Below, in pieces: positions 3,461 through 62,209 of a stretch of 64,000 nucleotides of DNA. The first letter of the stretch is position 1. The number at the start of each line of letters is the position of its first letter. Source of the DNA: Escherichia coli O127:H6 str. E2348/69 (GTDB lineage: Bacteria; Pseudomonadota; Gammaproteobacteria; Enterobacterales; Enterobacteriaceae); assembly GCF_000026545.1 (NCBI RefSeq), contig NC_011601.1. One strand, 5' to 3'. Position numbers and translations under genes: made by a program. The notes under the pieces were generated by a model. The model was not told where the DNA came from. It searched no databases and worked only from the letters and a program-made list of their open reading frames with translations.

Positions 3461-3727
3461 TTAACGTAACTGGCTGTCTTTCGAACCTCTGCGATTATAT
3501 CCTGTATAAGCTGGTTTTTGTAAATCTTTCTCCTGCTGACAATGAATGCATAAGCGCACGCCAGGAATGGCTTCCCGACGGGCCTGCGGGATAGGGGCAC
3601 CGCACTCTTCACATTCATACAGGCTTTCGCCACGCGGAATTTCACCCCGAGCGCGGGCAATCGCATCTTCAATTGTACTGTTGATCTGTTCGTTGACGGC
3701 GTCATCATTAGCCCAACCGGATGCCAT
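3461..3727 (-). CDS. ybiI: DksA/TraR-family C4-type zinc-finger protein
   Basis: 88 aa; CxxC...CxxC motif (CEECGAPIP...LCIHCQ). Confidence 0.9.
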   Translation of the reverse strand: MASGWANDDAVNEQINSTIEDAIARARGEIPRGESLYECEECGAPIPQARREAIPGVRLCIHCQQEKDLQKPAYTGYNRRGSKDSQLR

Positions 3728-3800
3728 ATCGTCCTCCCCATATCAATGCTTGTACAGTTAAGTGTAGCTAATATAGGGACGAACTCGGGCAGTTCAAGCG

Positions 3801-4478
3801 TCAGATCTCCGACCATTCCCGCAGCAGATTATGATAAAGATTGAGCAGCGACAGGATCTCTTCACTTTCGCCGTAGTGGCTTTTCAGCGACTGAATATTG
3901 TTGTCCAGTTCAAACAGCATGGCGCGCTTTTTATCATCACGGATCATCGACTGGATCCACATAAATGATGCCACTCGCACGCCGCGGGTTACGGGTGTCA
4001 CGCAATGCAGGCTGCTGGAGGGATACAACACCAGATCGCCTGCCGGGAGTTTTACCCGATGTTGCCCGAAGGTGTCATTAACGACCAGTTCGCCGCCGTC
4101 GTAGCTTTCTGGATCGCTTAAAAACAGCGTGGCAGAAAGGTCAGTGCGCATCCAGCCGTTTTGTGGATGGCTGCGTACTGCGCCATCCACATGAAAACCA
4201 TAGGTTTCATTGTTCTGATAGCGATTAAACAGCGGCGTGGAAAGGGTACGCGGCAAGGCCGCGGCAAAGAACAAAGCATGTTGGTTAACCGCGTTCAGCA
4301 CCTCATTTTGCAGGGCGGCGTACAGGGCGCTGCGGGTGTCTACTTGTTGATTGTTCTTAACTTGCGCACCTTGTGCGCCGGTGGTGACGCGCCCATCCAC
4401 CCATTCGGCTTGTTCCAGTTGTTCGCGAAAACGGGCGACGTCCTGTGGCGATAACACGCCGGGAATGTGGTACATCAT
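3801..4478 (-). CDS. ybiX: PKHD-type Fe(II)/2-oxoglutarate-dependent hydroxylase
   Basis: Track ORF is 237 aa; start trimmed to the internal Met (MMYHIPGVL...) to give the expected 225 aa; lies downstream of fiu in the same orientation. Confidence 0.85.
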
Positions 4479-4519
4479 ACAAGTTCTCCAAAAAGTGGGG
4501 CCTGCGCCCCACATCTGAA

Positions 4520-6802
4520 TCAGAAATGCATATTGGCCGTGAGCAGGAAGGTTCTTGGCTCGCCCGGGTGATAACGGTAGCCGCTCTTGTTGATTGAGGC
4601 GACGTAATCGGTATCAAACAGGTTGTAGACGTTTAGCTGGAAGTCGAGATTGCGATTAACCCGATACCCCAGTTTGGCATCGGCGACCCAGTAACCTTCG
4701 GTAAACGCTGGCGTTCCCACCGCGCCGTCTGAACCTTTATGCATACTGCCGATATACCGTGCGCCCGCACCAACAGAAATATCATCGGTTGCCTGATACT
4801 GGCTCCATAAGGTGAAGGCGTGTTCCGGGGTATACGGCAGCGATGAGGAACCATCCTGGGCAACATCTTTGCCGTTTTTGATAGTTGCTTTTTGCTGGGT
4901 ATAGCCGCCAATCATCTGCCATGCGGGGGTGATATTCCCGGCCACGGATATCTCGTAACCTTCGACACGTTTCTTACCATATTGCGAATAAGTCCCGTCA
5001 TCATTTTGCTCAACTTCATTTTCAATATCAGTACGGAACAGCGCGGCGGTAAGTAGCAGGCGTTTATCCAGAACCTGCCATTTGGTGCCAATCTCGCTGG
5101 TGTTGGCTTTTTGCGGTTTAAAATCGGTGCGGTTGGCACTGTTACCGCTGCCAGACTGCGCAAGGGCGAAGTTGTTGCCGCCCGGCGGCTGCTGGGAAAC
5201 GGCATAGTTAATATAGACATTGCCGTTTTCCGTCAGGTGATACAGCGCCCCGGCTTTCCAGTTCACCAGATTGCCCGACTTGGCGGTGTCGACGGTGGTG
5301 ACCGGAGAACCTTTTGCCACGCTAGCAGGGCAGGTGATGGCACCGCGCCCGCTGCCGCCGCAGGCGGTGGCACTGTCATATTCAGTATGATAATTATCCA
5401 GACGGATCCCACCGTTCAGCTCAAAATCACGGGTGATTTGCAGCGTATCGAAGGCATAAATTGCGAAGGTATCCGTCTGACCATTGGCGTTTGCGCCGTT
5501 GCGCGTCAGGCCGCCGGGATGAATGCTGCTGTCAGGATGATAAATATTTACCGCCGGTAACGTCACCGGATTAACGCCATAGTTAGTCTGTGTTTCGCGG
5601 GTAAATTCCACGCCGGTACTGACATCATGACCGATAGCGCCGGTATAGAACGTCGAGGTCAGGTTGGTCTGGTTGGTGAGAATTTTGTTACTCACATCTT
5701 TGGTATTCGCCGTGCGTGACCACGTCCAGCTATTCACATCGCTGGTGGGCTGGGTAATATTCGACGCTCCACCCATAATCGCCGTCATCAGGTAATCCTG
5801 CTTTACGCGCGACCAACGCGTAGTGTTGCGAATGGTGGTGTTATCGTTGATGTCGTGCTCAAAACGCATGGTAGCGGTGTCGGTGGTCGAATCGTCGTAA
5901 TCGGAATCCGTGCCGTAAAAGTTATGAGTATCAACTTTTCCGGAATGATTCAGGGCCGCTGTTCCCGCAGATGGGGCAGAATAACCCGGTAAACCGATGG
6001 TCGGAATGCCGCCGTCTGGCGTGTTGTGCTGGGTGACATGCAGATAATTAAGATACAAACGATTCGCTGTACCAAGGCCAAAAGCGACAGAAGGGGCGAC
6101 GCCGTAACGCTCATTTTTGACTTTGTTGCGTCCGGCATCGTGCGTTTTTTCGCCCATTACATTCAGGCGCACCGCAGTGGTATCACCAATGACCTGATTG
6201 ACGTCCAGCGTGCCGCGGCGGAACCAGGCGCTGCCAATACTGGCGGAGGCGTCAATGCCGGAATCATTGCGCGGCTGTTTGCTGATCATATTGATCGAGC
6301 CTGTCGGTGCGCTGCGCCCGTAGTCGGTGCCGGACGGCCCTTTAATTACTTCGACCTGCTCGGTATTGAAGGTGTCGCGCGAGACGCTGCCGATATCGCG
6401 AATGCCATCGATATAAATACTGTTAGAGGTATCGGCACCGCGCATATAAATGGCGTCGCCAGTGGTGGAGTTACCGTTCTCACCCGCAAAAAACGCACCC
6501 ACGCCGGGGACGTTTTTGAGCGCGTCGGTAAGGTTGGTTGCACCCTGATCTTTAATCACTTGTTCAGAAATCACTGTCATCGTGCGGGTAGTATCCGCTA
6601 CCGGACGCGAGAATTTCGGATCGGCAGATTTTTGTGGCGCATAAAGCGAAGGCGTTGATGCTTCGACAACCAGCGTGTCATCCGCGTTAGCTTGCCCTTC
6701 GGCAGCGAGTGCCTGTGCCACAGGCGTAATACCAATACAAAGACCGGCAAAGAACGTGAGCGAATGAAATTGTCTGGCAGGGAAATTGCGATTGTTTTCC
6801 AT
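4520..6802 (-). CDS. fiu: TonB-dependent catecholate siderophore outer-membrane receptor
   Basis: 760 aa; signal peptide; C-terminal ...NMHF with terminal Phe typical of TonB-dependent barrels. Confidence 0.95.
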
Positions 6803-53584: not shown

Positions 53585-55102
53585 TTAATCAAATGATGTG
53601 GCCAGTTCAATTAATTCAATGTAATTATGTAAGGCATAAAAAGATGTATTCAGACCATTCTCTATAAGGGCTCCTTGCAAATACTTTATAGCTGTATCAC
53701 CATCAATAGGGCCTTGTTGAGATATAATCATTAGTGAATTTTGCCCATTGTTTTTTATACTTGATTTAAGCATGTTTATATTATTAATAAAATACAATGC
53801 AACATCTAAGTAATTTATTAATGTTAAATTTATTTTGGGCTCAATCTGTGAGATGAATAATCTACTGCTCGCCGTTCTATAGATATAATTGACACCTATT
53901 CTTTGCTGATTTGTATCAAGATTTAATTCAAGGATGGCTTGAGAAACACCTTTTAAATTGGAGCTTTGCTTTATCGAATCAGTGAAACGTTGTGCTGCAT
54001 TTCTTCGACCAATTAGTCCATCTATAATTTGACGTTCCTTATCATATATAATCATTAGCGAAATTATAAAAATATAATCTACTTTCTTTTTGACTAAATC
54101 AGATTTAAGAATGTCTATTAACCTTTCAGTATTTCGGATTGAGTCTCTTAGATTTAACCCAAATGCTTCAAATACGTTGGAAATATTTATTGAAAAGTCT
54201 TCTAATGTTGCTGTTAGTGGGTGTGTTTTTGATGTGATATTTTCAAAATCGGTACCAATATAATCACCAACAACACCATTAATTAAATCTTTAAGCTCAG
54301 GTTGTTTTAAAGTAAATCTTCTATGAAAAAAACGGCCTAAATAGTCATTTGCGGAAAAATCATTACCGTAAACATTCTTGATTGAATGTTGTAATTGATC
54401 TGTGTCAGTAGCAATAATAAAGACAAAATTTTTAATATCGAATATATGTTTAACAATCTCTAAAAGAGAAATTGCATAATCTGGCCTGCATCTGTCTAAT
54501 TCATCTATAAAGATAAATATAGGACATGAAAAACTATTTTCATATGCCAACCTAGACCATAACGTTAGTTCTTTTTTTAATACCTTAATGCTCTTCAGTT
54601 TTTCCTGGTGTTCCTTCAGCATTATTAATGAGGCTTCTTTGGCTATATCACCTACGTTATCTACTCCTGCATAAGTCTTGATTAGGCCAGATATGATTTC
54701 AGGTAGAACACCTTTTGTAAAGCGTCCGATAGCATGGCCGCTTTGTATCAATCGAGCATCAAGTTTTCCTGCATATGTTTGCAATTGTTGTGACAAAGAA
54801 GAAAAAAGGGTTAAAAATGCATCATCAGAAAAGTCTTGCTTCCAGGCATCAATGTAAACGCATGGGTGTGCATCTTTTATTGAGTTATAAAATCTCTTTA
54901 TGAAAAAACTTTTACCAGCTCCCCATTCTGCATTAAGGTTGATTACCGTGTTGTTCTTTTGCCCCTTTTCCTTAAGATAAAAATATAGATATTCTGCATA
55001 GTGTCTCCGATTAAGTTTGTCTTTGGAAAGAATTTCCTCTTCGTCGTCTAATATAAAGGTAGTTTCTTCATCCCAGTTCCAATTACAATCACCACATTTC
55101 AC
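53585..55102 (-). CDS. KAP-family P-loop NTPase (prophage cargo; candidate anti-phage protein)
   Basis: 505 aa; GTG start with GGAGA RBS; Walker A AEWGAGKS (res 58-65) and Walker B IFIFIDELDRC typical of KAP NTPases; long Asn/Ile/Lys-rich C-terminal region; AT-rich. Confidence 0.7.
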   Translation of the reverse strand: MKCGDCNWNWDEETTFILDDEEEILSKDKLNRRHYAEYLYFYLKEKGQKNNTVINLNAEWGAGKSFFIKRFYNSIKDAHPCVYIDAWKQDFSDDAFLTLFSSLSQQLQTYAGKLDARLIQSGHAIGRFTKGVLPEIISGLIKTYAGVDNVGDIAKEASLIMLKEHQEKLKSIKVLKKELTLWSRLAYENSFSCPIFIFIDELDRCRPDYAISLLEIVKHIFDIKNFVFIIATDTDQLQHSIKNVYGNDFSANDYLGRFFHRRFTLKQPELKDLINGVVGDYIGTDFENITSKTHPLTATLEDFSINISNVFEAFGLNLRDSIRNTERLIDILKSDLVKKKVDYIFIISLMIIYDKERQIIDGLIGRRNAAQRFTDSIKQSSNLKGVSQAILELNLDTNQQRIGVNYIYRTASSRLFISQIEPKINLTLINYLDVALYFINNINMLKSSIKNNGQNSLMIISQQGPIDGDTAIKYLQGALIENGLNTSFYALHNYIELIELATSFD

Positions 55103-55127: not shown

Positions 55128-56051
55128 TTAATGTAAACAACTTATAATAACTTTTGCAATAAACTCAATGTCTGTAAGCGAACATTCAAAAGAGTGATTT
55201 TGGGATGAAATATAAACTCGTCCTTTAGGTAGTCGAGTTATCATTCTAAATGAATTCTCTCCATCAATATTTACTAGCCACTTACCATCATGTACATCTT
55301 TAAAACCCATTTCACATATTAATTCAGAGTCTTCGGTAGATACTACGAATGCATTTTTTAAATTGGAAGGTAGAAAGCATGGGTCAAATAAATATGAGCC
55401 ATCATTTATTAACTTGCCATTGATTAATACTTTTTTCACTAATGTTAAAGTATCTTTATTTTTTGCGTTTTTCATTTCTCCTGTACCAAATGAAATCCAT
55501 TCAATAGAATGGCCCGTTTCTATTGCACACTGCAAAACCCAGTCTGCAGGAAAAATGTCACGCATGTATCGTGTGGCTAATGTGCTTTTTGAAATACCTA
55601 GGTGATCAGCTAATGCTTGGCGCGTTTTGTAACCGTAAGCCTCGACAATTCGTTCTATTGTTGCCTTACCCCCTCGGTTAAAATTCATGAGTTTTTCATT
55701 ATCGAACTTTATAGTGGGAATGTATACTTCATTGCAAAGGCCATTAACGGCATGTTTTTCAGAATATTGCTCTGATGAAGGAGCAGTATCTGAACCAAGA
55801 ACTAACCATTCAATTGATGCTCCTGTTTCTATGGAACATATAACAACCCAATCTGCAGGAAAGGTATTACGTGCATATCTGTTGGCCATAGTACTTTGGG
55901 AAATACCTAGATGATTACATAATGCCTGTCGTGACTTGAAGCCATAGGCTAGGAGTATACGCTCAATAACTTTTTGCCCTCCACGATTCTGCATAACTAT
56001 TGCTTTCAGATCGTTTTTGATATGGCTAAATTTTAATTTTTGAGTTGACAT
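55128..56051 (-). CDS. CI-like repressor paralog with tandemly duplicated N-terminal DNA-binding domain
   Basis: 307 aa; residues ~20-85 and ~120-190 are two copies of the domain (IERxxxAYGxKxRQALxxHLGISxSTxAxRYxRxxFPAxWVxxCxxETGxSxxWL) found once in the adjacent CI; C-terminal domain is paralogous to the CI C-terminus. Start could alternatively be the Met at residue 20. Confidence 0.75.
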   Translation of the reverse strand: MSTQKLKFSHIKNDLKAIVMQNRGGQKVIERILLAYGFKSRQALCNHLGISQSTMANRYARNTFPADWVVICSIETGASIEWLVLGSDTAPSSEQYSEKHAVNGLCNEVYIPTIKFDNEKLMNFNRGGKATIERIVEAYGYKTRQALADHLGISKSTLATRYMRDIFPADWVLQCAIETGHSIEWISFGTGEMKNAKNKDTLTLVKKVLINGKLINDGSYLFDPCFLPSNLKNAFVVSTEDSELICEMGFKDVHDGKWLVNIDGENSFRMITRLPKGRVYISSQNHSFECSLTDIEFIAKVIISCLH

Positions 56052-56101: not shown

Positions 56102-56677
56102 TTACTCAAAGTACTTAACTGTTATGCTTATAATTTTTCCAATAATTTCGATTTCTTCTTTTTTACATTCGAAAGCCCTATTTCCACCTTCAACTAAGAT
56201 TCTTCCACCAGGTAAACGAGTGATATCGCGGATTGTTACTTCGGCATCAATACTTATTACCCATTTGCCGTCACGAATATCGTTAAACTCTTTATCGCAA
56301 ATAAAAACGGAATTGTTATCGGTGATTACAAACGGATTTTTGAGCGTAGATGGTAGAAATTCTTTATCGAAAATATAAAAACCATCTTCCTGCAAGGTTC
56401 CATCAGATAATACATATTTAACGACTTCCATAGTATTTGTATTACCTGAAGTTTGCTTTGAACCATGTCCGGTCGTGAGCCAGTTAAGCGAGGCGCCCGT
56501 TTCAAGTGCGCACTGGATTACCCATTCAGCAGGGAATGAGTCACGCATATAGCGTGTGGCGAGAGTACTTTTAGAGATTCCTAAGTGATCGCACAACGCC
56601 TGTCGAGTCTTGAAGCCATATGCTTCTACCATGCGCTCTATAGCGCCTCGTCCGCCTTTCTCCAAACTCATGGTCAC
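56102..56677 (-). CDS. cI: prophage immunity repressor CI (186 type)
   Basis: 191 aa; divergent from the apl/cII operon; N-terminal domain resembles recalled 186 CI (...AYGF...CALETGA..W..TG); start may be the ATG at 56671 instead. Confidence 0.75.
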   Translation of the reverse strand: MTMSLEKGGRGAIERMVEAYGFKTRQALCDHLGISKSTLATRYMRDSFPAEWVIQCALETGASLNWLTTGHGSKQTSGNTNTMEVVKYVLSDGTLQEDGFYIFDKEFLPSTLKNPFVITDNNSVFICDKEFNDIRDGKWVISIDAEVTIRDITRLPGGRILVEGGNRAFECKKEEIEIIGKIISITVKYFE

Positions 56678-56796
56678 TCCAAGTGAACTTTTGTCTTGAC
56701 GATTTCATTATGCGATCGCATGTTTATGGTGTTCACAAAATGCAAACGATCCGTATTCGTCCTGATTAATCAACATTAAACGAGGAATGTTGCATC
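56678..56796. promoter_or_regulatory. prophage immunity switch region (early lytic promoter and candidate CI operators)
   Basis: Divergent intergenic region with TTGACG -35-like hexamer (56696-56701), perfect 12-bp palindrome ATGCGATCGCAT (56710-56721), and flanking inverted repeat GTGAAC...GTTCAC (56683-56688 / 56731-56736). Confidence 0.45.
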
Positions 56797-57018
56797 ATGA
56801 AACCTAACATTTCAATCACTCTTACCACGCCTCATGTGACTATTGAACGTTATAGCGAGCTGACAGGGCTATCCATCGATACTATCAATGACATGTTGGC
56901 TGATGGACGTCTTATCCGTCACCGTCTGCGGAAAGATAAAAAACGCGAAAAAGTGATGATCAACATAGCAGCCATGACCGTTGATGCGCTTTCAGAATGC
57001 AATCTAAACCTTAATTAG
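56797..57018 (+). CDS. Apl/Cox-like HTH excisionase-regulator
   Basis: 73 aa; first gene of the rightward operon with GAGGAA RBS; position matches 186 apl / P2 cox. Confidence 0.55.
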
Positions 57019-57050
57019 TTCGATTCTGAAATACATCAGAGGCATTGACC

Positions 57051-57560
57051 ATGTTTGATTACCAAGTTTCCAAACACCCGCATTTTGATGAAGCCTGTAG
57101 AGCTTTTGCACTTCGTCACAATATGGCGAAGCTGGCAGAACGTGCAGGAATGAATGTCCAGACTCTGCGAAACAAACTCAACCCAGATCAACCGCATCAG
57201 CTCAATGCGCCAGAAATCTGGCTGCTTACCGATCTGACTGAAGATTCAACGCTGGTAGATGGCTTTCTGGCACAGATTCACTGCCTGCCATGTGTACCGA
57301 TTAATGAGGTGGCAAAAGAGAAACTGCCGCATTACGTCATGAGTGCAACTGCAGAGATAGGGCGTGTCGCGGCAGGTGCGGTTTCTGGCGATGTAAAAAC
57401 CAGTGCAGGCCGTCGTGATGCGATCAGCAGCATTAACTCTGTTACACGACTGATGGCGCTGGCTGCTGTTTCATTGCAGGCCCGTTTACAGGCTAATCCT
57501 GCGATGGCGAGTGCAGTTGATACCGTGACTGGCCTCGGTGCTTCATTCGGTTTGCTGTGA
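57051..57560 (+). CDS. cII: CII-like lysogeny establishment regulator (186 type)
   Basis: Start trimmed to [45 protein letters not shown]...; closely matches recalled 186 CII over its full length. Confidence 0.85.
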
Positions 57561-57567
57561 GGTGCTT

Positions 57568-57768
57568 ATGCTGACGAAAGAACCATCATTTGCATCGCTG
57601 CTGGTAAAACAAAGTCCGGCAATGCACTACGGTCACGGCTGGATCATGGGTGAGGATGGTAAACGCTGGCATCCGTGCCGTTCACAAGATGAATTGCTGG
57701 CAGAACTATCAACGAAAAAACGGGGGAACCAATGGCTATTGAAGGCGCTGCGGCGACTGTTCCATTAA
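57568..57768 (+). CDS. hypothetical phage early protein
   Basis: 66 aa from MLTKEPSF...; sits where 186 carries fil; no recognisable motif. Confidence 0.4.
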   Translation: MLTKEPSFASLLVKQSPAMHYGHGWIMGEDGKRWHPCRSQDELLAELSTKKRGNQWLLKALRRLFH

Positions 57769-58073
57769 GCCCCGGTGAACGCCTGAATGGACTTAATCAT
57801 ATTGCGGAATTAAGAGCGAAAGTTTTTGGCCTGAATATTGAGTCAGAGCTTGAGCGGTTTATTAAAGATATGCGTGATCCACGGGATATCAATAATGAAC
57901 AAAATAAACGGGCACTGGCTGCCATATTCTTTATGGCAAAAATTCCAGCTGAACGTCATAGCATCAGCATTAATGAGCTGACCACTGACGAAAAGCGGGA
58001 GCTGATTAAAGCAATGAATCATTTTCGTGCAGTGGTGAGCTTATTTCCCAGACGGCTAACCATGCCGAATTAA
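57732..58073 (+). CDS. hypothetical phage early protein
   Basis: 113 aa ORF in the early operon; start uncertain (overlaps previous gene by 37 nt). Confidence 0.4.
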   Translation: MAIEGAAATVPLSPGERLNGLNHIAELRAKVFGLNIESELERFIKDMRDPRDINNEQNKRALAAIFFMAKIPAERHSISINELTTDEKRELIKAMNHFRAVVSLFPRRLTMPN

Positions 58074-58140
58074 CCAACTAATGAAATTCATGGCGTAAAC
58101 CCGCCAGGCATCCCTTTATCTAAATTCAGGAGAATTGATT

Positions 58141-58374
58141 ATGCGTAATATTGAAACCCTCACGACTAAAACCGGACCGGATGATGCAGGGCTTAATATT
58201 TTACTGACAGAGGCTCGTCTGGAAGAACGCCGGGCAAGGGCTGAAGCAATGGCAGCTCGCCTTGATAGCCTGGCGTGTCATATCACATCCCGCCAGCTAA
58301 ACCACGTCGAAGCGGCAGAACTGCTGCGTGTGACTGCTGAAGCAATCCAGAACGAAGCGCAGGAGATCCACTGA
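58141..58374 (+). CDS. hypothetical phage early protein
   Basis: 77 aa from MRNIETLTTK...; CAGGAGAA RBS 6 nt upstream; stop overlaps next start (TGATG). Confidence 0.5.
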   Translation: MRNIETLTTKTGPDDAGLNILLTEARLEERRARAEAMAARLDSLACHITSRQLNHVEAAELLRVTAEAIQNEAQEIH

Positions 58375-58601
58375 TGGCTGATGCAATGGATCTCGTACAG
58401 CAGCGCGTTGAAGAAGAACGCCAGCGTCATATCCGTGCTGCCCGCGCCAAAACGCCGGGCGTATCCCGCGTGCTTTGCATTGAGTGTGAAGCACCAATTC
58501 CGCCAGCACGACGTCGCGCCATTCCGGGTGTGCAGCTTTGCATTACCTGTCAGGAAATCGCAGAGCTGAAAGGCAAACATTACAACGGAGGTGCTGTATG
58601 A
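58374..58601 (+). CDS. phage TraR/DksA-family C4 zinc-finger protein
   Basis: 75 aa; CIECEAPIPPARRRAIPGVQLCITCQ is paralogous to chromosomal YbiI (CEECGAPIPQARREAIPGVRLCIHCQ). Confidence 0.75.
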   Translation: MADAMDLVQQRVEEERQRHIRAARAKTPGVSRVLCIECEAPIPPARRRAIPGVQLCITCQEIAELKGKHYNGGAV

Positions 58602-59455
58602 GCACCATCCTGAAATGGGCGGGTAATAAAACCGCCATTATGCCAGAACTGAAAAAATACCTTCCTGCTGGCCCGCGACTGGTTGAACCTTTCGCGGGTT
58701 CTTGTGCTGTGATGATAGAGACGGATTACCCCAGCTATCTTGTTGCGGATATTAATCCTGATTTAATCAACCTCTATAAAAAGGTTGCTGCTGATTGCGA
58801 GGCGTTTATATCTCGTGCCAGAGCTTTATTTGAGGAAGCAAACAGGGAGGTGGCTTATTACAACATAAGGCAGGAGTTTAATTACTCCACTGAAATTACT
58901 GATTTCATGAAAGCGGTATATTTCCTGTATCTCAATCGTCATGGTTACCGTGGGTTATGTCGCTATAACAAGAGCGGGCATTTCAACATTCCCTACGGGA
59001 ATTATAAAAATCCGTATTTCCCTGAAAAAGAAATTCGCAAATTTGCAGAAAAAGCCCAGCGAGCAACGTTTATCTGCGCCAGCTTTGATGAAACGCTGGC
59101 GATGTTGAAGGCGGGGGATGTGGTGTATTGCGATCCGCCTTATGACGGTACGTTTTCCGGCTATCACACTGATGGCTTCACTGAGGATGACCAGTATCAC
59201 CTGGCATCCGTTCTTGAACATCGATCATCTGAAGGTCATCCGGTCATTGTTTCTAACAGTGACACATCCCTGATTCGTTCGCTGTATCGCAATTTCACTC
59301 ACCACTACATCAAGGCAAAACGCAGCATCGGCGTGTCGGCTGGCGAGAGTAAATCTGCAACAGAAATCATTGCTGTTTCCGGGGCGCGCTGCTGGGTGGG
59401 ATTTGATCCTTCGCGTGGCGTGGATAGTTCTGCTGTGTACGAGGTGCGTGTATGA
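58598..59455 (+). CDS. dam: phage DNA adenine methyltransferase (Dam-like)
   Basis: 285 aa from [12 protein letters not shown]... with GGAGG RBS; FAGSCAV SAM-binding motif and DPPY catalytic motif. Confidence 0.85.
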
Positions 59456-61866
59456 GTCATGATGATATGAGCAACTCTAGCGGCTTTAACGAGGCCGCTG
59501 CAGCATTTTCATGGAACGGCCCGAAAAAGGCCATTAACCCTTATCTGGATCCGGCGGAAGTTGCGCCGGAGTCTGCACTTTCAAACATGATCACTCTGTA
59601 CGCTGCCGATAACGAGCAGGAACAGCTGCGCCGCGATGCACTGAGTGAGCAGGTCTGGGAGCGTTATTTCTTTAATGAATCCCGTGATCCTGTCCAGCGC
59701 GAAATGGAGCAGGATAATCTCATTAGTCGGGCAAAGCTGGCGCATGATCAGCAGCGTTTTAACCCGGACATGGTCATTCTGGCGGACGTCAGCGCCCAGC
59801 CCACCCACATCAGCAAGCCGCTGATGCAACGTATCGAATACTTCAGCAGCCTGGGCAGGCCAAAGGCTTATTCCCGCTATTTGCGTGAGACGATTAAGTC
59901 ATGTCTGGAGCGACTGGAGTATGTACGCGACAGTCAGCTATCCGCTTCTTTCCGTTTTATGGCAAGCCATCAAGGGCTTGAGGGCCTGCTGATCCTGCCT
60001 GAAATGAGTCAGGATCAGGTAAAACGCCTGTCCACCTTGGTAGCAGCGCATATGAGCATGTGTCTTGAGGCCGCTTGTGGTGATTTGTATGCCTCCGATG
60101 ACGTTAAGCCAGAAGAAATCCGCAAGACATGGGAAAAGGTGGCAGCGGAAACCCTGCGTCTGGATGTTATCCCGCCTGCGTTTGAGAAACTCCGTCGGAA
60201 AAGAAACCGCCGCAAACCCGTGCCCTATGAACTCATACCGGGTTCGCTGGCACGTATGCTTTGCGCCGACTGGTGGTATCGAAAATTGTGGAAGATACGT
60301 TGCGAATGGCGGGAAGAGCAGTTGCGTGCTGTCTGCCTGGTCAGCAAAAAAGCATCTCCCTATGTCAGCTATGAAGCAGTGACGCATAAACGTGAGCAGC
60401 GCCGCAAGTCGCTGGAGTTTTTCCGTTCTCATGAACTGGTGAACGAAGACGGCGACACGCTGGATATGGAAGACGTGGTAAACGCCAGCAGCAGCAACCC
60501 GGCGCACCGCCGCAATGAGATGATGGCCTGTGTTAAAGGTCTGGAGCTTATCGCGGAAATGCGTGGTGACTGCGCCGTTTTCTACACCATTACCTGTCCG
60601 TCACGTTTCCATTCTACGCTCAATAACGGCAGACCAAACCCAACCTGGACAAATGCGACGGTAAGACAAAGCAGCGATTATCTGGTCGGCATGTTTGCTG
60701 CATTTCGTAAGGCTATGCACAAAGCCGGGTTGCGCTGGTATGGCGTGCGGGTGGCTGAGCCGCACCATGACGGTACTGTGCACTGGCATCTCATGTGTTT
60801 CATGCGCAAAAAAGACCGCCGCGCCATTACTGCATTGTTGCGTAAGTTTGCCATCCGTGAAGACCGCGAGGAACTGGGCAATAACACGGGTCCACGCTTT
60901 AAGTCTGAGCTGATAAACCCGCGCAAAGGAACGCCGACAAGCTACATCGCGAAATACATCAGTAAGAACATTGACGGACGTGGTCTGGCTGGCGAGATCA
61001 GCAAGGAAACGGGTAAATCCCTGCGTGATAACGCCGAATACGTTAATGCCTGGGCGTCTCTGCATCGTGTTCAGCAGTTCCGCTTCTTTGGTATTCCGGG
61101 GCGTCAGGCGTACCGTGAACTTCGCTTGCTGGCTGGTCAGGCGGCAAGGCAACAGGGTGACAAAAAAGCAGGTGCGCCGGTACTGGATGACCCGCGCCTT
61201 GATGCCATCCTGGCTGCCGCTGATGCTGGCTGTTTTGCCACCTACATCATGAAGCAGGGCGGCGTACTGGTTCCCCGCAAATATCACCTTATCAGAACAG
61301 CTTATGAAATTAACGAAGAGCCGACCGCTTATGGCGATCACGGTATTCGTATTTATGGCATCTGGTCACCCATTGTACAGGGCAAGATCTGCACTCATGC
61401 AATGAAATGGAAAATGGTTCGTAAGGTCGTTGACGTTCAGGAGGCGGCAGCCGACCAGGGCGCTTGCGCCCCTTGGACTCGTGGCAATAACTGTCCCCTT
61501 GCTGAAAATTTGAACCGACAGGAGAAAGATAAATCAGCTGATGGGGACCCCAGAACGGACATTACCCGCATGGATGACAAGGAGTTACACGATTACCTGC
61601 ACAGTATGAACAAAAAGGAGCGCCGGGAACTGGCTGCAAGGTTACGTCTGGTGAAACCGAAACGGCGTAGAGACTACAAACAGCGAATTACAGACCATCA
61701 ACGACAGCAGCTCGTCTATGAACTGAAATCCAGAGGATTTGATGGCAGCGAGAAAGAGGTCGATTTACTCCTTCGCGGCGGCAGTATTCCGTCAGGAGCT
61801 GGCCTGCGTATCTTCTATCGGAACCAGCGTTTGCAGGAAGATGATAAGTGGCGGAACCTGTATTAA
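59452..61866 (+). CDS. A: phage replication initiation protein A (HuH rolling-circle endonuclease)
   Basis: 804 aa; HuH motif (VHWHLMCF) followed later by tyrosine-containing region ([10 protein letters not shown]); positional equivalent of P2/186 gene A. Confidence 0.8.
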
Positions 61867-62020: not shown

Positions 62021-62209
62021 ATGCAGGACTATTTTTTGGAGTCTTTGAAGCTCCAGCGCATTGATTTTTTTCTTAAGCTTGTAGCGGCTAGTGAGTGTAG
62101 TGATGAAGAGAAGGGGCTGGCTCTGCAGTGGGTTTCTGAATTGACTGATGAACTTATGGCAAAAATCAGAAGCCACGAATACAACCGCTCAATGGATGTC
62201 ATCAGCTGA
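62021..62209 (+). CDS. SOS-controlled small protein (positional equivalent of the 186 Tum antirepressor; function unverified)
   Basis: 62 aa from MQDYFLESLK... with AGGAGG RBS; directly downstream of the LexA box. Confidence 0.5.
   Translation: MQDYFLESLKLQRIDFFLKLVAASECSDEEKGLALQWVSELTDELMAKIRSHEYNRSMDVIS

Follow-up and report, generated by a model that had tools for sequence, protein, structure and literature searches.

Two small C4 zinc-finger proteins of the TraR/DksA family are encoded within a single 64,000-nucleotide stretch of the Escherichia coli O127:H6 str. E2348/69 chromosome (contig NC_011601.1; hereafter, the window), one of them in a prophage and the other, YbiI, at a chromosomal locus. 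This arrangement raises the question of how the two genes are related, and what the phage protein would do to its host. A first-pass annotation, made from the sequence alone, had described the prophage gene as a paralog of ybiI with a nearly identical finger core, had proposed that its product binds RNA polymerase (RNAP) at its secondary channel to reprogram host transcription, and had suggested that ybiI may itself be a domesticated phage gene. The window corresponds to nucleotides 800001-864000 of NZ_LT827011.1. Both open reading frames were recovered as described, at 75 and 88 amino acids, respectively (Table 1). A six-frame scan of the 64-kb window detected exactly two TraR-like fingers with the CxxC-N17-CxxC spacing, and the occurrence of additional TraR-like copies in the window was thereby rejected.

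Table 1. Coordinates of the features discussed in the text (positions within the window; gene ends include the stop codon for the two TraR/DksA-family genes)
Feature	Position	Strand	Basis and remarks
ybiI, chromosomal YbiI-type C4 zinc-finger gene	3461..3727	-	88 aa; NF008243, 160.6 bits (cut-off 96)
YbiI C-terminal tail YNRRGSKDSQLR	3464..3499	-	subfamily signature; absent from the prophage copy
ybiI zinc-finger core CEECGAPIPQARREAIPGVRLCIHC	3539..3613	-	six-frame motif scan
Promoter-like site between ybiX and ybiI	3770..3797	-	consensus scan; consistent with ybiI having its own promoter
186-type CI repressor gene, divergent from the early operon	56102..56671	-	189 aa; PF07022, PF16452, annotation
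Early lytic operon (small ORF, cII, fil, DUF5347, DUF2732, TraR-like, dam, replication endonuclease A)	56797..61866	+	annotation, Pfam
DUF2732 gene (P2 Orf80-like)	58141..58374	+	PF10809, E=2.9e-29; directly 5' of the TraR-like gene
TraR/Orf82-type C4 zinc-finger gene, prophage	58374..58601	+	75 aa
N-terminal tip motif D3-A-M-D6-L-V8	58380..58397	+	DxxDxV variant of TraR DxxDxA; alignment with TraR, P2 Orf82, and YbiI
C4 zinc-finger core CIECEAPIPPARRRAIPGVQLCITC	58476..58550	+	six-frame motif scan, alignment; includes R46/R47 (TraR R48/R49)
DNA adenine methylase gene (dam)	58598..59455	+	annotation; start overlaps the TraR-like stop (ATGA)

The prophage gene product (WP_000752613.1), which starts MADAMD and ends KHYNGGAV, is already labeled a "TraR/DksA family transcriptional regulator" in RefSeq, and curated profiles bear out the family assignment of the first-pass annotation. 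The protein scores above the cut-offs of both PF01258 (43.5 bits versus 24.9) and TIGR02419 (65.8 bits versus 59.7) and matches phrog_54 (E=1.4e-30). YbiI likewise passes the PF01258 and TIGR02419 cut-offs and matches phrog_54, and a sequence search of the PDB with the prophage protein retrieved YbiI (E=5e-11) and TraR (E=3e-9). The architecture typical of TraR, with a length of ~73 aa and an N-terminal helix, a C4 globular domain, and a C-terminal helix, is also present.

Models for narrower groups place the protein more precisely. It scores only 40.4 bits against the equivalog for conjugative-plasmid TraR (NF010268; cut-off 108), and its gene occupies a phage early operon as opposed to a tra operon. 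Against the YbiI equivalog (NF008243) it reaches 54.6 bits versus a cut-off of 96, and it lacks both the MAxG[WF] N-terminus and the NRR[GA]SKDSQLR tail that were derived here as a YbiI signature. The DksA model NF033459 gives 24.3 bits versus 105, with no reported match to TIGR02420. The position of the gene, 3' of DUF2732/Orf80 and 5' of replication gene A, is that of Orf82 in the Peduoviridae. Taken together, the prophage gene is the Felsduovirus version of P2 Orf82, an ordinary and previously annotated member of the TraR family. The family itself is large, comprising 6496 clusters at 50% identity (E<=1e-3); the 150 representative sequences drawn from it included many frameshifted or truncated gene calls, which were filtered out beforehand.

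The gene is also widespread and well conserved. Its product is 100% identical in amino acid sequence to ELphiS00009 of Salmonella phage RE2010, and the eight nucleotide differences between the two genes are all synonymous (8 synonymous, 0 nonsynonymous), indicating purifying selection on the TraR-like gene. Moreover, a 501-bp region around it was found in 1240 of 5426 complete E. coli genomes (about 23%).

Residues that matter for TraR activity are largely retained in the prophage protein. In the N-terminal tip, D3 and D6 are kept, as they are in 76 and 77 of 79 TraR/Orf82-type sequences, respectively. Position 8 of the DxxDxA motif is occupied by Val (DAMDLV); among the 79 relatives, 37 have Ala there, 32 have Val, and 5 have Ile. 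P2 Orf82 carries Ile and is active but less potent, and the authors who tested it connect the Ile with the lower activity (Gopalkrishnan et al. 2022, PMC9239242). Within the finger, P41-I42-P43 and A45-R46-R47 align with P43-I44-P45 and A47-R48-R49 of TraR, so that the RNAP-binding PIP loop and Arg pair are both in place (residue roles for the finger and Arg pair are taken from PMC9239242 and PMC6970531). R46 is invariant among the TraR/Orf82-type sequences and R47 occurs in 75 of the 79. One substitution may be of consequence: Pro44 occupies the position of TraR E46, a residue at the Si3 interface (PMC6970531), and activation by the prophage protein could therefore be weak. The C-terminal helix ends in KHY.

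The predicted fold agrees with these motifs. A single-sequence AF2 model was poor (pLDDT 68), and an MSA-based model (pLDDT 85.7) was used instead; it consists of a helix at residues 4-25, a zinc domain, and a second helix at residues 57-70. These predicted elements reproduce the N, G, and C elements of TraR, which span residues 2-27, 28-57, and 58-73 (PMC6970531). The top PDB match to the model is RNAP-bound TraR (6N57_M; TM 0.58-0.60 over 71 columns), followed by YbiI (2KGO) and DksA complexes (7KHI_M, TMq 0.69), and no DNA-binding zinc-finger fold was significant in the PDB comparison. The last result bears on the idea of a zinc-finger transcription factor that binds specific DNA sequences, a reading to which the annotation wording "transcriptional regulator" alone lends itself. 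With a model fold that matches TraR and DksA, and with all of the characterized relatives acting through binding to RNAP and not to DNA (PMC9239242), that reading is barely credible.

The gene's surroundings are those of a temperate phage. The host prophage is of the Peduoviridae, Felsduovirus type (RE2010/Fels-2/186-like), is integrated beside rcdA, and has DNA that is 95.9% identical to several Klebsiella Felsduovirus-type phages and 94.6% identical to RE2010. Its minus strand carries int, a KAP NTPase gene, and two CI-like genes, while the plus strand carries, in order, a small ORF, cII, fil, DUF5347, DUF2732, the TraR-like gene, dam, replication endonuclease A, and a dinI-like gene. The DUF2732 stop and the TraR-like start overlap in the sequence TGATG, with a GGAG 9 nt upstream. 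A scan of the plus strand from 56500 to 59600, using the sigma-70 consensus only, detected no promoter-like or terminator-like site. The gene overlaps, together with the lack of an internal promoter or terminator, fit a single early transcript under the repression of the 186-type CI, whose gene is divergent. From what is known of P2 and 186, this repressor would be expected to prevent expression of the TraR-like gene in the lysogen.

The same gene neighborhood recurs in related phages. A DUF2732/Orf80 gene lies immediately 5' of the TraR-like gene in all six of the other Peduoviridae compared (RE2010, SEN8, MHG39, SW9, EtG, and 613R3). In P2 itself, the layout is Orf80 (DUF2732), Orf81, Orf82, Orf83, and A, and Orf82 is expressed from the Pe promoter (PMC9239242).

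Several other genes of the prophage deserve mention in their own right. Between int and the repressor genes is a gene for a KAP-family P-loop NTPase of 505 aa (53585-55102, minus strand), which matches the PADLOC candidate defense family PDC-S20 (E=5e-78), with weaker matches to PifA and QatA; the gene is probably anti-phage cargo. The two CI-type repressor genes are adjacent. One (56102-56671, minus strand) is of the ordinary 186 type, and the other (55128-56051, minus strand) encodes a protein of 307 aa with two Phage_CI_repr HTH stretches and a CI C-terminal domain. The latter could provide a second layer of immunity or could regulate the KAP gene. On the other side of the operon, 3' of gene A and where P2 has its tin/old cargo hotspot, are two small ORFs (62646-62981, minus strand, and 62021-62209, plus strand) with no Pfam or PADLOC match; RE2010 has an abortive-infection gene at the corresponding place. 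Also downstream of gene A, a DprA-like gene is cut by the end of the window (64075-64000 edge).

What, then, would the prophage protein do? By analogy with its characterized relatives, it is quite likely to regulate transcription through the secondary channel in the manner of TraR and to be produced at an early stage of lytic growth. RNAP binding, ppGpp-independent inhibition of rRNA promoters, and complementation of a dksA deletion have been reported for TraR, lambda Orf73, P2 Orf82, VHML Orf8, VP882 Orf61, and X. bovienii Gp34 (PMC9239242). Because P2 Orf82 and four other phage homologs bind RNAP, inhibit the rRNA and ribosomal-protein promoters rrnB P1 and rpsT P2, and complement a dksA deletion (PMC9239242), host reprogramming is the best-supported function for the prophage protein, much as the first-pass annotation had proposed. 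The nearest tested relative is P2 Orf82, which is only 47% identical.

A mechanism can be outlined on this basis. The TraR-like gene would be the sixth ORF of a CI-repressed early lytic operon, as P2/186 biology and the operon anatomy suggest, and its translation would be coupled to that of DUF2732 on the 5' side and dam on the 3' side. If the operon is indeed repressed by CI, the protein would be made only after induction or infection and not in a stable lysogen. Its RNAP binding and physiological effect are modeled here on TraR-RNAP structures and the tested homologs. The single N-terminal helix (residues 4-25) would enter the secondary channel of RNAP and bring D3 and D6 close to the active site, the zinc-ribbon domain would dock on the beta-prime rim helices and Si3 via R46 and R47, and the C-terminal helix (57-70) would contact the beta lobe-Si1. 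Once bound, the protein would inhibit the promoters of rRNA and ribosomal-protein genes and, with no need for ppGpp, stimulate some amino-acid promoters, and these promoter effects may channel host resources into phage production. From the Ala-to-Val change in DxxDxA, a lower potency is predicted, as reported for P2 Orf82.

The position of the DUF2732 gene invites a comparison with phage VP882, where QisA, encoded directly 5' of traR, binds TraR and strongly potentiates growth arrest (bioRxiv 10.64898/2026.07.27.740977). It is conceivable that the prophage protein likewise acts mainly within a two-protein module, most plausibly with DUF2732 as the phage partner, to cause a growth arrest like that of TraR_VP882 plus QisA; the DUF2732 gene is found 5' of the TraR-like gene in every member of the Peduoviridae examined, and the two genes overlap (TGATG) in E2348/69. 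However, QisA (VP882 gp60) has no Pfam match and no detectable similarity to the DUF2732 or CII proteins of the window, and the presence of a QisA-like partner among these two was rejected on that account. In P2, moreover, orf81 stands between DUF2732/Orf80 and Orf82, and P2 Orf82 is active on RNAP in vitro by itself (PMC9239242). A mainly two-protein mode of action is thus unlikely.

Another proposal, modeled on the TraR of F, which stimulates F transfer promoters, is that the main targets of the protein are the promoters or the replication of the phage itself, as opposed to host promoters. The gene does neighbor replication functions (dam and A), TraR raises transcription from F promoters, and the regulation of phage promoters has been left open for other homologs (mBio, PMC9239242). 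TraR-type proteins, however, act without binding DNA, so that promoter choice is a matter of kinetics, and the promoters that are canonically sensitive are those of host rRNA. A primarily phage-directed role is therefore decidedly unlikely, and regulation of host transcription through the secondary channel is the reading preferred here.

Comparisons with the closest known systems define what the prophage protein shares with each of them and how it differs. It shares with P2 Orf82 a length class of 74-75 aa, an early-operon location between DUF2732/Orf80 and replication gene A, D3 and D6, the C4 finger, the ARR motif, a C-terminal KHY helix, and a DxxDxA motif left incomplete by Ile in P2 and by Val in E2348/69. 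In contrast, P2 Orf82 falls outside the small neighbor-joining (NJ) clade of the prophage copy, at only 47% identity, and whereas in P2 orf81 separates Orf80 from Orf82 and orf83 comes next, the E2348/69 gene overlaps DUF2732 and is followed by dam. F-plasmid TraR (PDB 5W1S, 6N57) has the same succession of N-helix, zinc globular domain, and C-helix, with a full-length TM of about 0.6 and with D3, D6, and the PIP and RR residues kept; it differs in being only about 39% identical, in having Ala8 where the prophage protein has Val8 and Glu46 where it has Pro44, and in being encoded by a tra operon and not a phage lytic operon.

More distant relatives include lambda Orf73 and VP882 Orf61 (TraR_VP882), which are also small phage TraR homologs encoded in early or regulatory regions. 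The former slows host growth and raises burst size (PMC9239242), and the latter slows host growth as well (bioRxiv 10.64898/2026.07.27.740977). Both belong to other phage families and have other gene neighbors; sequence identity is low, about 33% for lambda Orf73 in the alignment, and VP882 differs further in its QisA, a homolog of which was undetected among the CII and DUF2732 proteins of the window. As a side observation, lambda orf73 (NC_001416.1, 30392-30613, minus strand) lacks a CDS annotation in the RefSeq lambda record and was recovered as a raw ORF. Finally, the prophage protein resembles DksA in its C4 finger and, as far as the model's alignment to DksA in RNAP complexes indicates, in a probable secondary-channel binding mode; DksA, in contrast to this 75-aa protein, has 151 aa and a two-helix coiled coil and needs ppGpp.

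The second part of the question concerns the relationship of the prophage protein to YbiI. The two are clearly homologous, with 31 of 68 residues identical by BLASTP (46%, E=1e-16), so that the kinship seen by the first-pass annotation stands; the special, paralogous link that it drew between them is not supported, since they belong to different subfamilies with different diagnostic termini. Within the finger core, counted as the 26 residues that begin with the first Cys and close with the Gln following the last Cys, the pair agrees at 20 (77%), and to call it nearly identical was a fair description, although most of these positions are family-wide consensus. The core consensus of the two types, Ce.Cg.pIPeaRR.a.PGv..Cv.CQ and CeeCg.pIPeARR.A.pGVrlC..CQ, makes the point. 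Over all cross-subfamily pairs the core identity averages 58% (sd 8), which puts the window pair in the top 2.5%; its 77% is the highest core identity to E. coli YbiI among 61 TraR/Orf82-type sequences, an excess of about four residues. The resemblance of the pair is weak outside the core, at 26% identity for the 34 N-terminal positions and 18% for the C-terminal helix.

At the DNA level, the two cores are only 65% identical, use the same codon for 9 of the 20 shared residues, and have no identical run longer than 8 nt. Recent recombination or gene conversion between them was rejected on these grounds, which indicate that the similarity of the cores is old and has been maintained by selection. 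The shared finger core thus reflects a family-wide constraint on the RNAP-docking domain and not a recent common origin, and the two proteins plausibly dock on the same surface of the enterobacterial RNAP.

The termini, on the other hand, divide the family. Members of the TraR/Orf82 type are 73-75 aa long, with an M-x-D-x-x-D start and an ELKxKHY helix at the end, whereas those of the YbiI type are 85-89 aa long, start MA[SGV]G[WF], lack the first Asp of DxxDxA, and have YNRRGSKDSQLR at the end. E. coli YbiI itself, with its 88 aa, MAxGW N-terminus, a Pro in the C-helix region, and the NRRGSKDSQLR tail, differs from the prophage copy in each of these respects. The prophage gene is accordingly a distant cousin of ybiI, neither a recent copy nor its source, with YbiI belonging to a separate, mainly chromosomal subfamily.

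Phylogenetic analysis gave the same division. In an NJ tree built on 74 columns shared by 102 sequences, with 300 bootstrap replicates and the C-terminal half of DksA as the root, all 40 of the YbiI-type sequences formed one clade (bootstrap 0.57), within which the chromosomal and virulent-phage members were sister groups. The prophage copy from the window paired with that of SEN8 (bootstrap 0.96) in a weakly supported, mostly Peduoviridae clade. When the columns of the terminal motifs were removed, leaving 63, the YbiI-type clade was again recovered, at a bootstrap of 0.15, and in fewer than 1% of the replicates did the two window genes share a clade of at most ten members more than the YbiI type itself. 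The two proteins do fall in different clades, as the refutation named in the first-pass annotation would have it, but their similarity is not confined to the cysteine ligands. Backbone bootstraps were below 0.2, and given this and the sister relationship of phage and chromosomal groups, the NJ tree gives no direction for an ancient phage-host transfer.

The YbiI type is not confined to chromosomes. Homologs in virulent phages are 39-56% identical to YbiI over the full length, most of them 44-56%, among the matches listed. Their carriers include Privateervirus and Libingvirus (Grimontviridae); Slopekvirus, Karamvirus, Jiaodavirus, Hadassahvirus, and Ceceduovirus of the Straboviridae; a phage of the Vequintavirinae; and the jumbo Alexandravirus. 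The NRR[GA]SKDSQLR tail is present in 9 of 10 virulent-phage homologs, and three of the proteins (from Privateer, KP27, and Kashira) pass NF008243 with 112-118 bits versus 96. The closest phage relatives of YbiI are thus virulent-phage proteins and not the Peduoviridae protein.

As for ybiI, the gene behaves as a core, syntenic, sigma-S-regulated chromosomal host gene. It was found in 5420 of 5426 complete E. coli genomes, and its product has an NMR structure (PDB 2KGO). The gene order rlmF-[fiu-ybiX]-ybiI-ybiJ-[ybiC]-ybiB is shared by Escherichia, Citrobacter, Enterobacter, Salmonella, Leclercia, Lelliottia, and others; only some of the Enterobacteriaceae have the fiu-ybiX pair (3801-6802, minus strand, in the window) between rlmF and ybiI, whereas the order ybiI-ybiJ-ybiB does not change. 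Membership of ybiI in a fiu-ybiX iron operon was rejected for this reason. The variability means that the textbook assignment of ybiI to an iron-uptake operon fails across genera, and it fits a ybiI promoter of its own. Such a promoter has been shown experimentally to be sigma-S-dependent (PMC4447067), and the promoter-like site upstream of ybiI in the window presumably corresponds to it. With respect to function, YbiI has been reported to rescue the auxotrophy of a dksA deletion only at high expression ("data not shown", PMC2613031).

Beyond the enteric bacteria, full-length homologs that are 64-74% identical to YbiI occur in Morganella, Pantoea, the Halomonadaceae, Pseudomonas, Halopseudomonas, an Ectothiorhodospiraceae MAG, and a Desulfovibrio MAG. 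The neighbors of distant homologs are housekeeping genes, including betT, betC, ureC, uvrA, folC, and genes for an aminotransferase and an aldehyde dehydrogenase. The NRR[GA]SKDSQLR tail is invariant in all 80 of the chromosomal loci examined, from the Enterobacteriaceae to the Halomonadaceae, Pseudomonas, and a Desulfovibrio MAG, and these loci were retrieved without using the tail as a search pattern. The dodecapeptide is as conserved as the zinc ligands, and no mention of it was found in the searchable literature.

These observations bear directly on the suggestion that ybiI is a domesticated prophage gene of the Peduoviridae type, or that the two genes have exchanged sequence. The window copy does have the top core identity to E. 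coli YbiI of the 61 TraR/Orf82-type sequences, and in the DksA-rooted NJ trees the YbiI-type clade is nested, with negligible support, in a radiation of mobile-element sequences. Nevertheless, the prophage protein falls far short of the YbiI equivalog (54.6 versus 96 bits) and has neither of the YbiI termini, it comes near YbiI in less than 1% of bootstrap replicates, and the core DNA shows no long shared run. The gene is nearly universal in E. coli and syntenic across the Enterobacteriaceae, with housekeeping neighbors in the Halomonadaceae, Pseudomonas, Morganella, and Pantoea, and proteins from virulent phages are closer to YbiI, at 53-56% full-length identity. A foreign origin by composition was also rejected, with a GC content of 50.9% for ybiI and 50.8% for the window on average. 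Domestication from the Peduoviridae lineage, or exchange with it, is thus highly improbable.

YbiI-type proteins form a distinct class, shared by gammaproteobacterial chromosomes (with sigma-S induction in E. coli) and the early regions of unrelated virulent phages. It is conceivable, if rather doubtful, that this class has a mechanism unlike that of TraR, in which the conserved tail could contact a target untouched by TraR. The cellular gene, on this same tentative footing, could be an ancient capture from virulent phages or a donation to them.

Since the mechanism of the TraR family is already established on close relatives, the E2348/69 copy is a case of known biology and by itself adds little to the family or the principle. 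The more useful outcome is the negative one, namely that ybiI should not be read as the relic of a Peduoviridae-type prophage. For the phage itself, the homologs of TraR illustrate how a 75-residue protein can impose a stringent-response-like transcription program without ppGpp. Given that ~23% of complete E. coli genomes contain the prophage region and that phages of Salmonella and Klebsiella encode the same or nearly the same protein, the gene may well be a common modifier of host physiology during induction.
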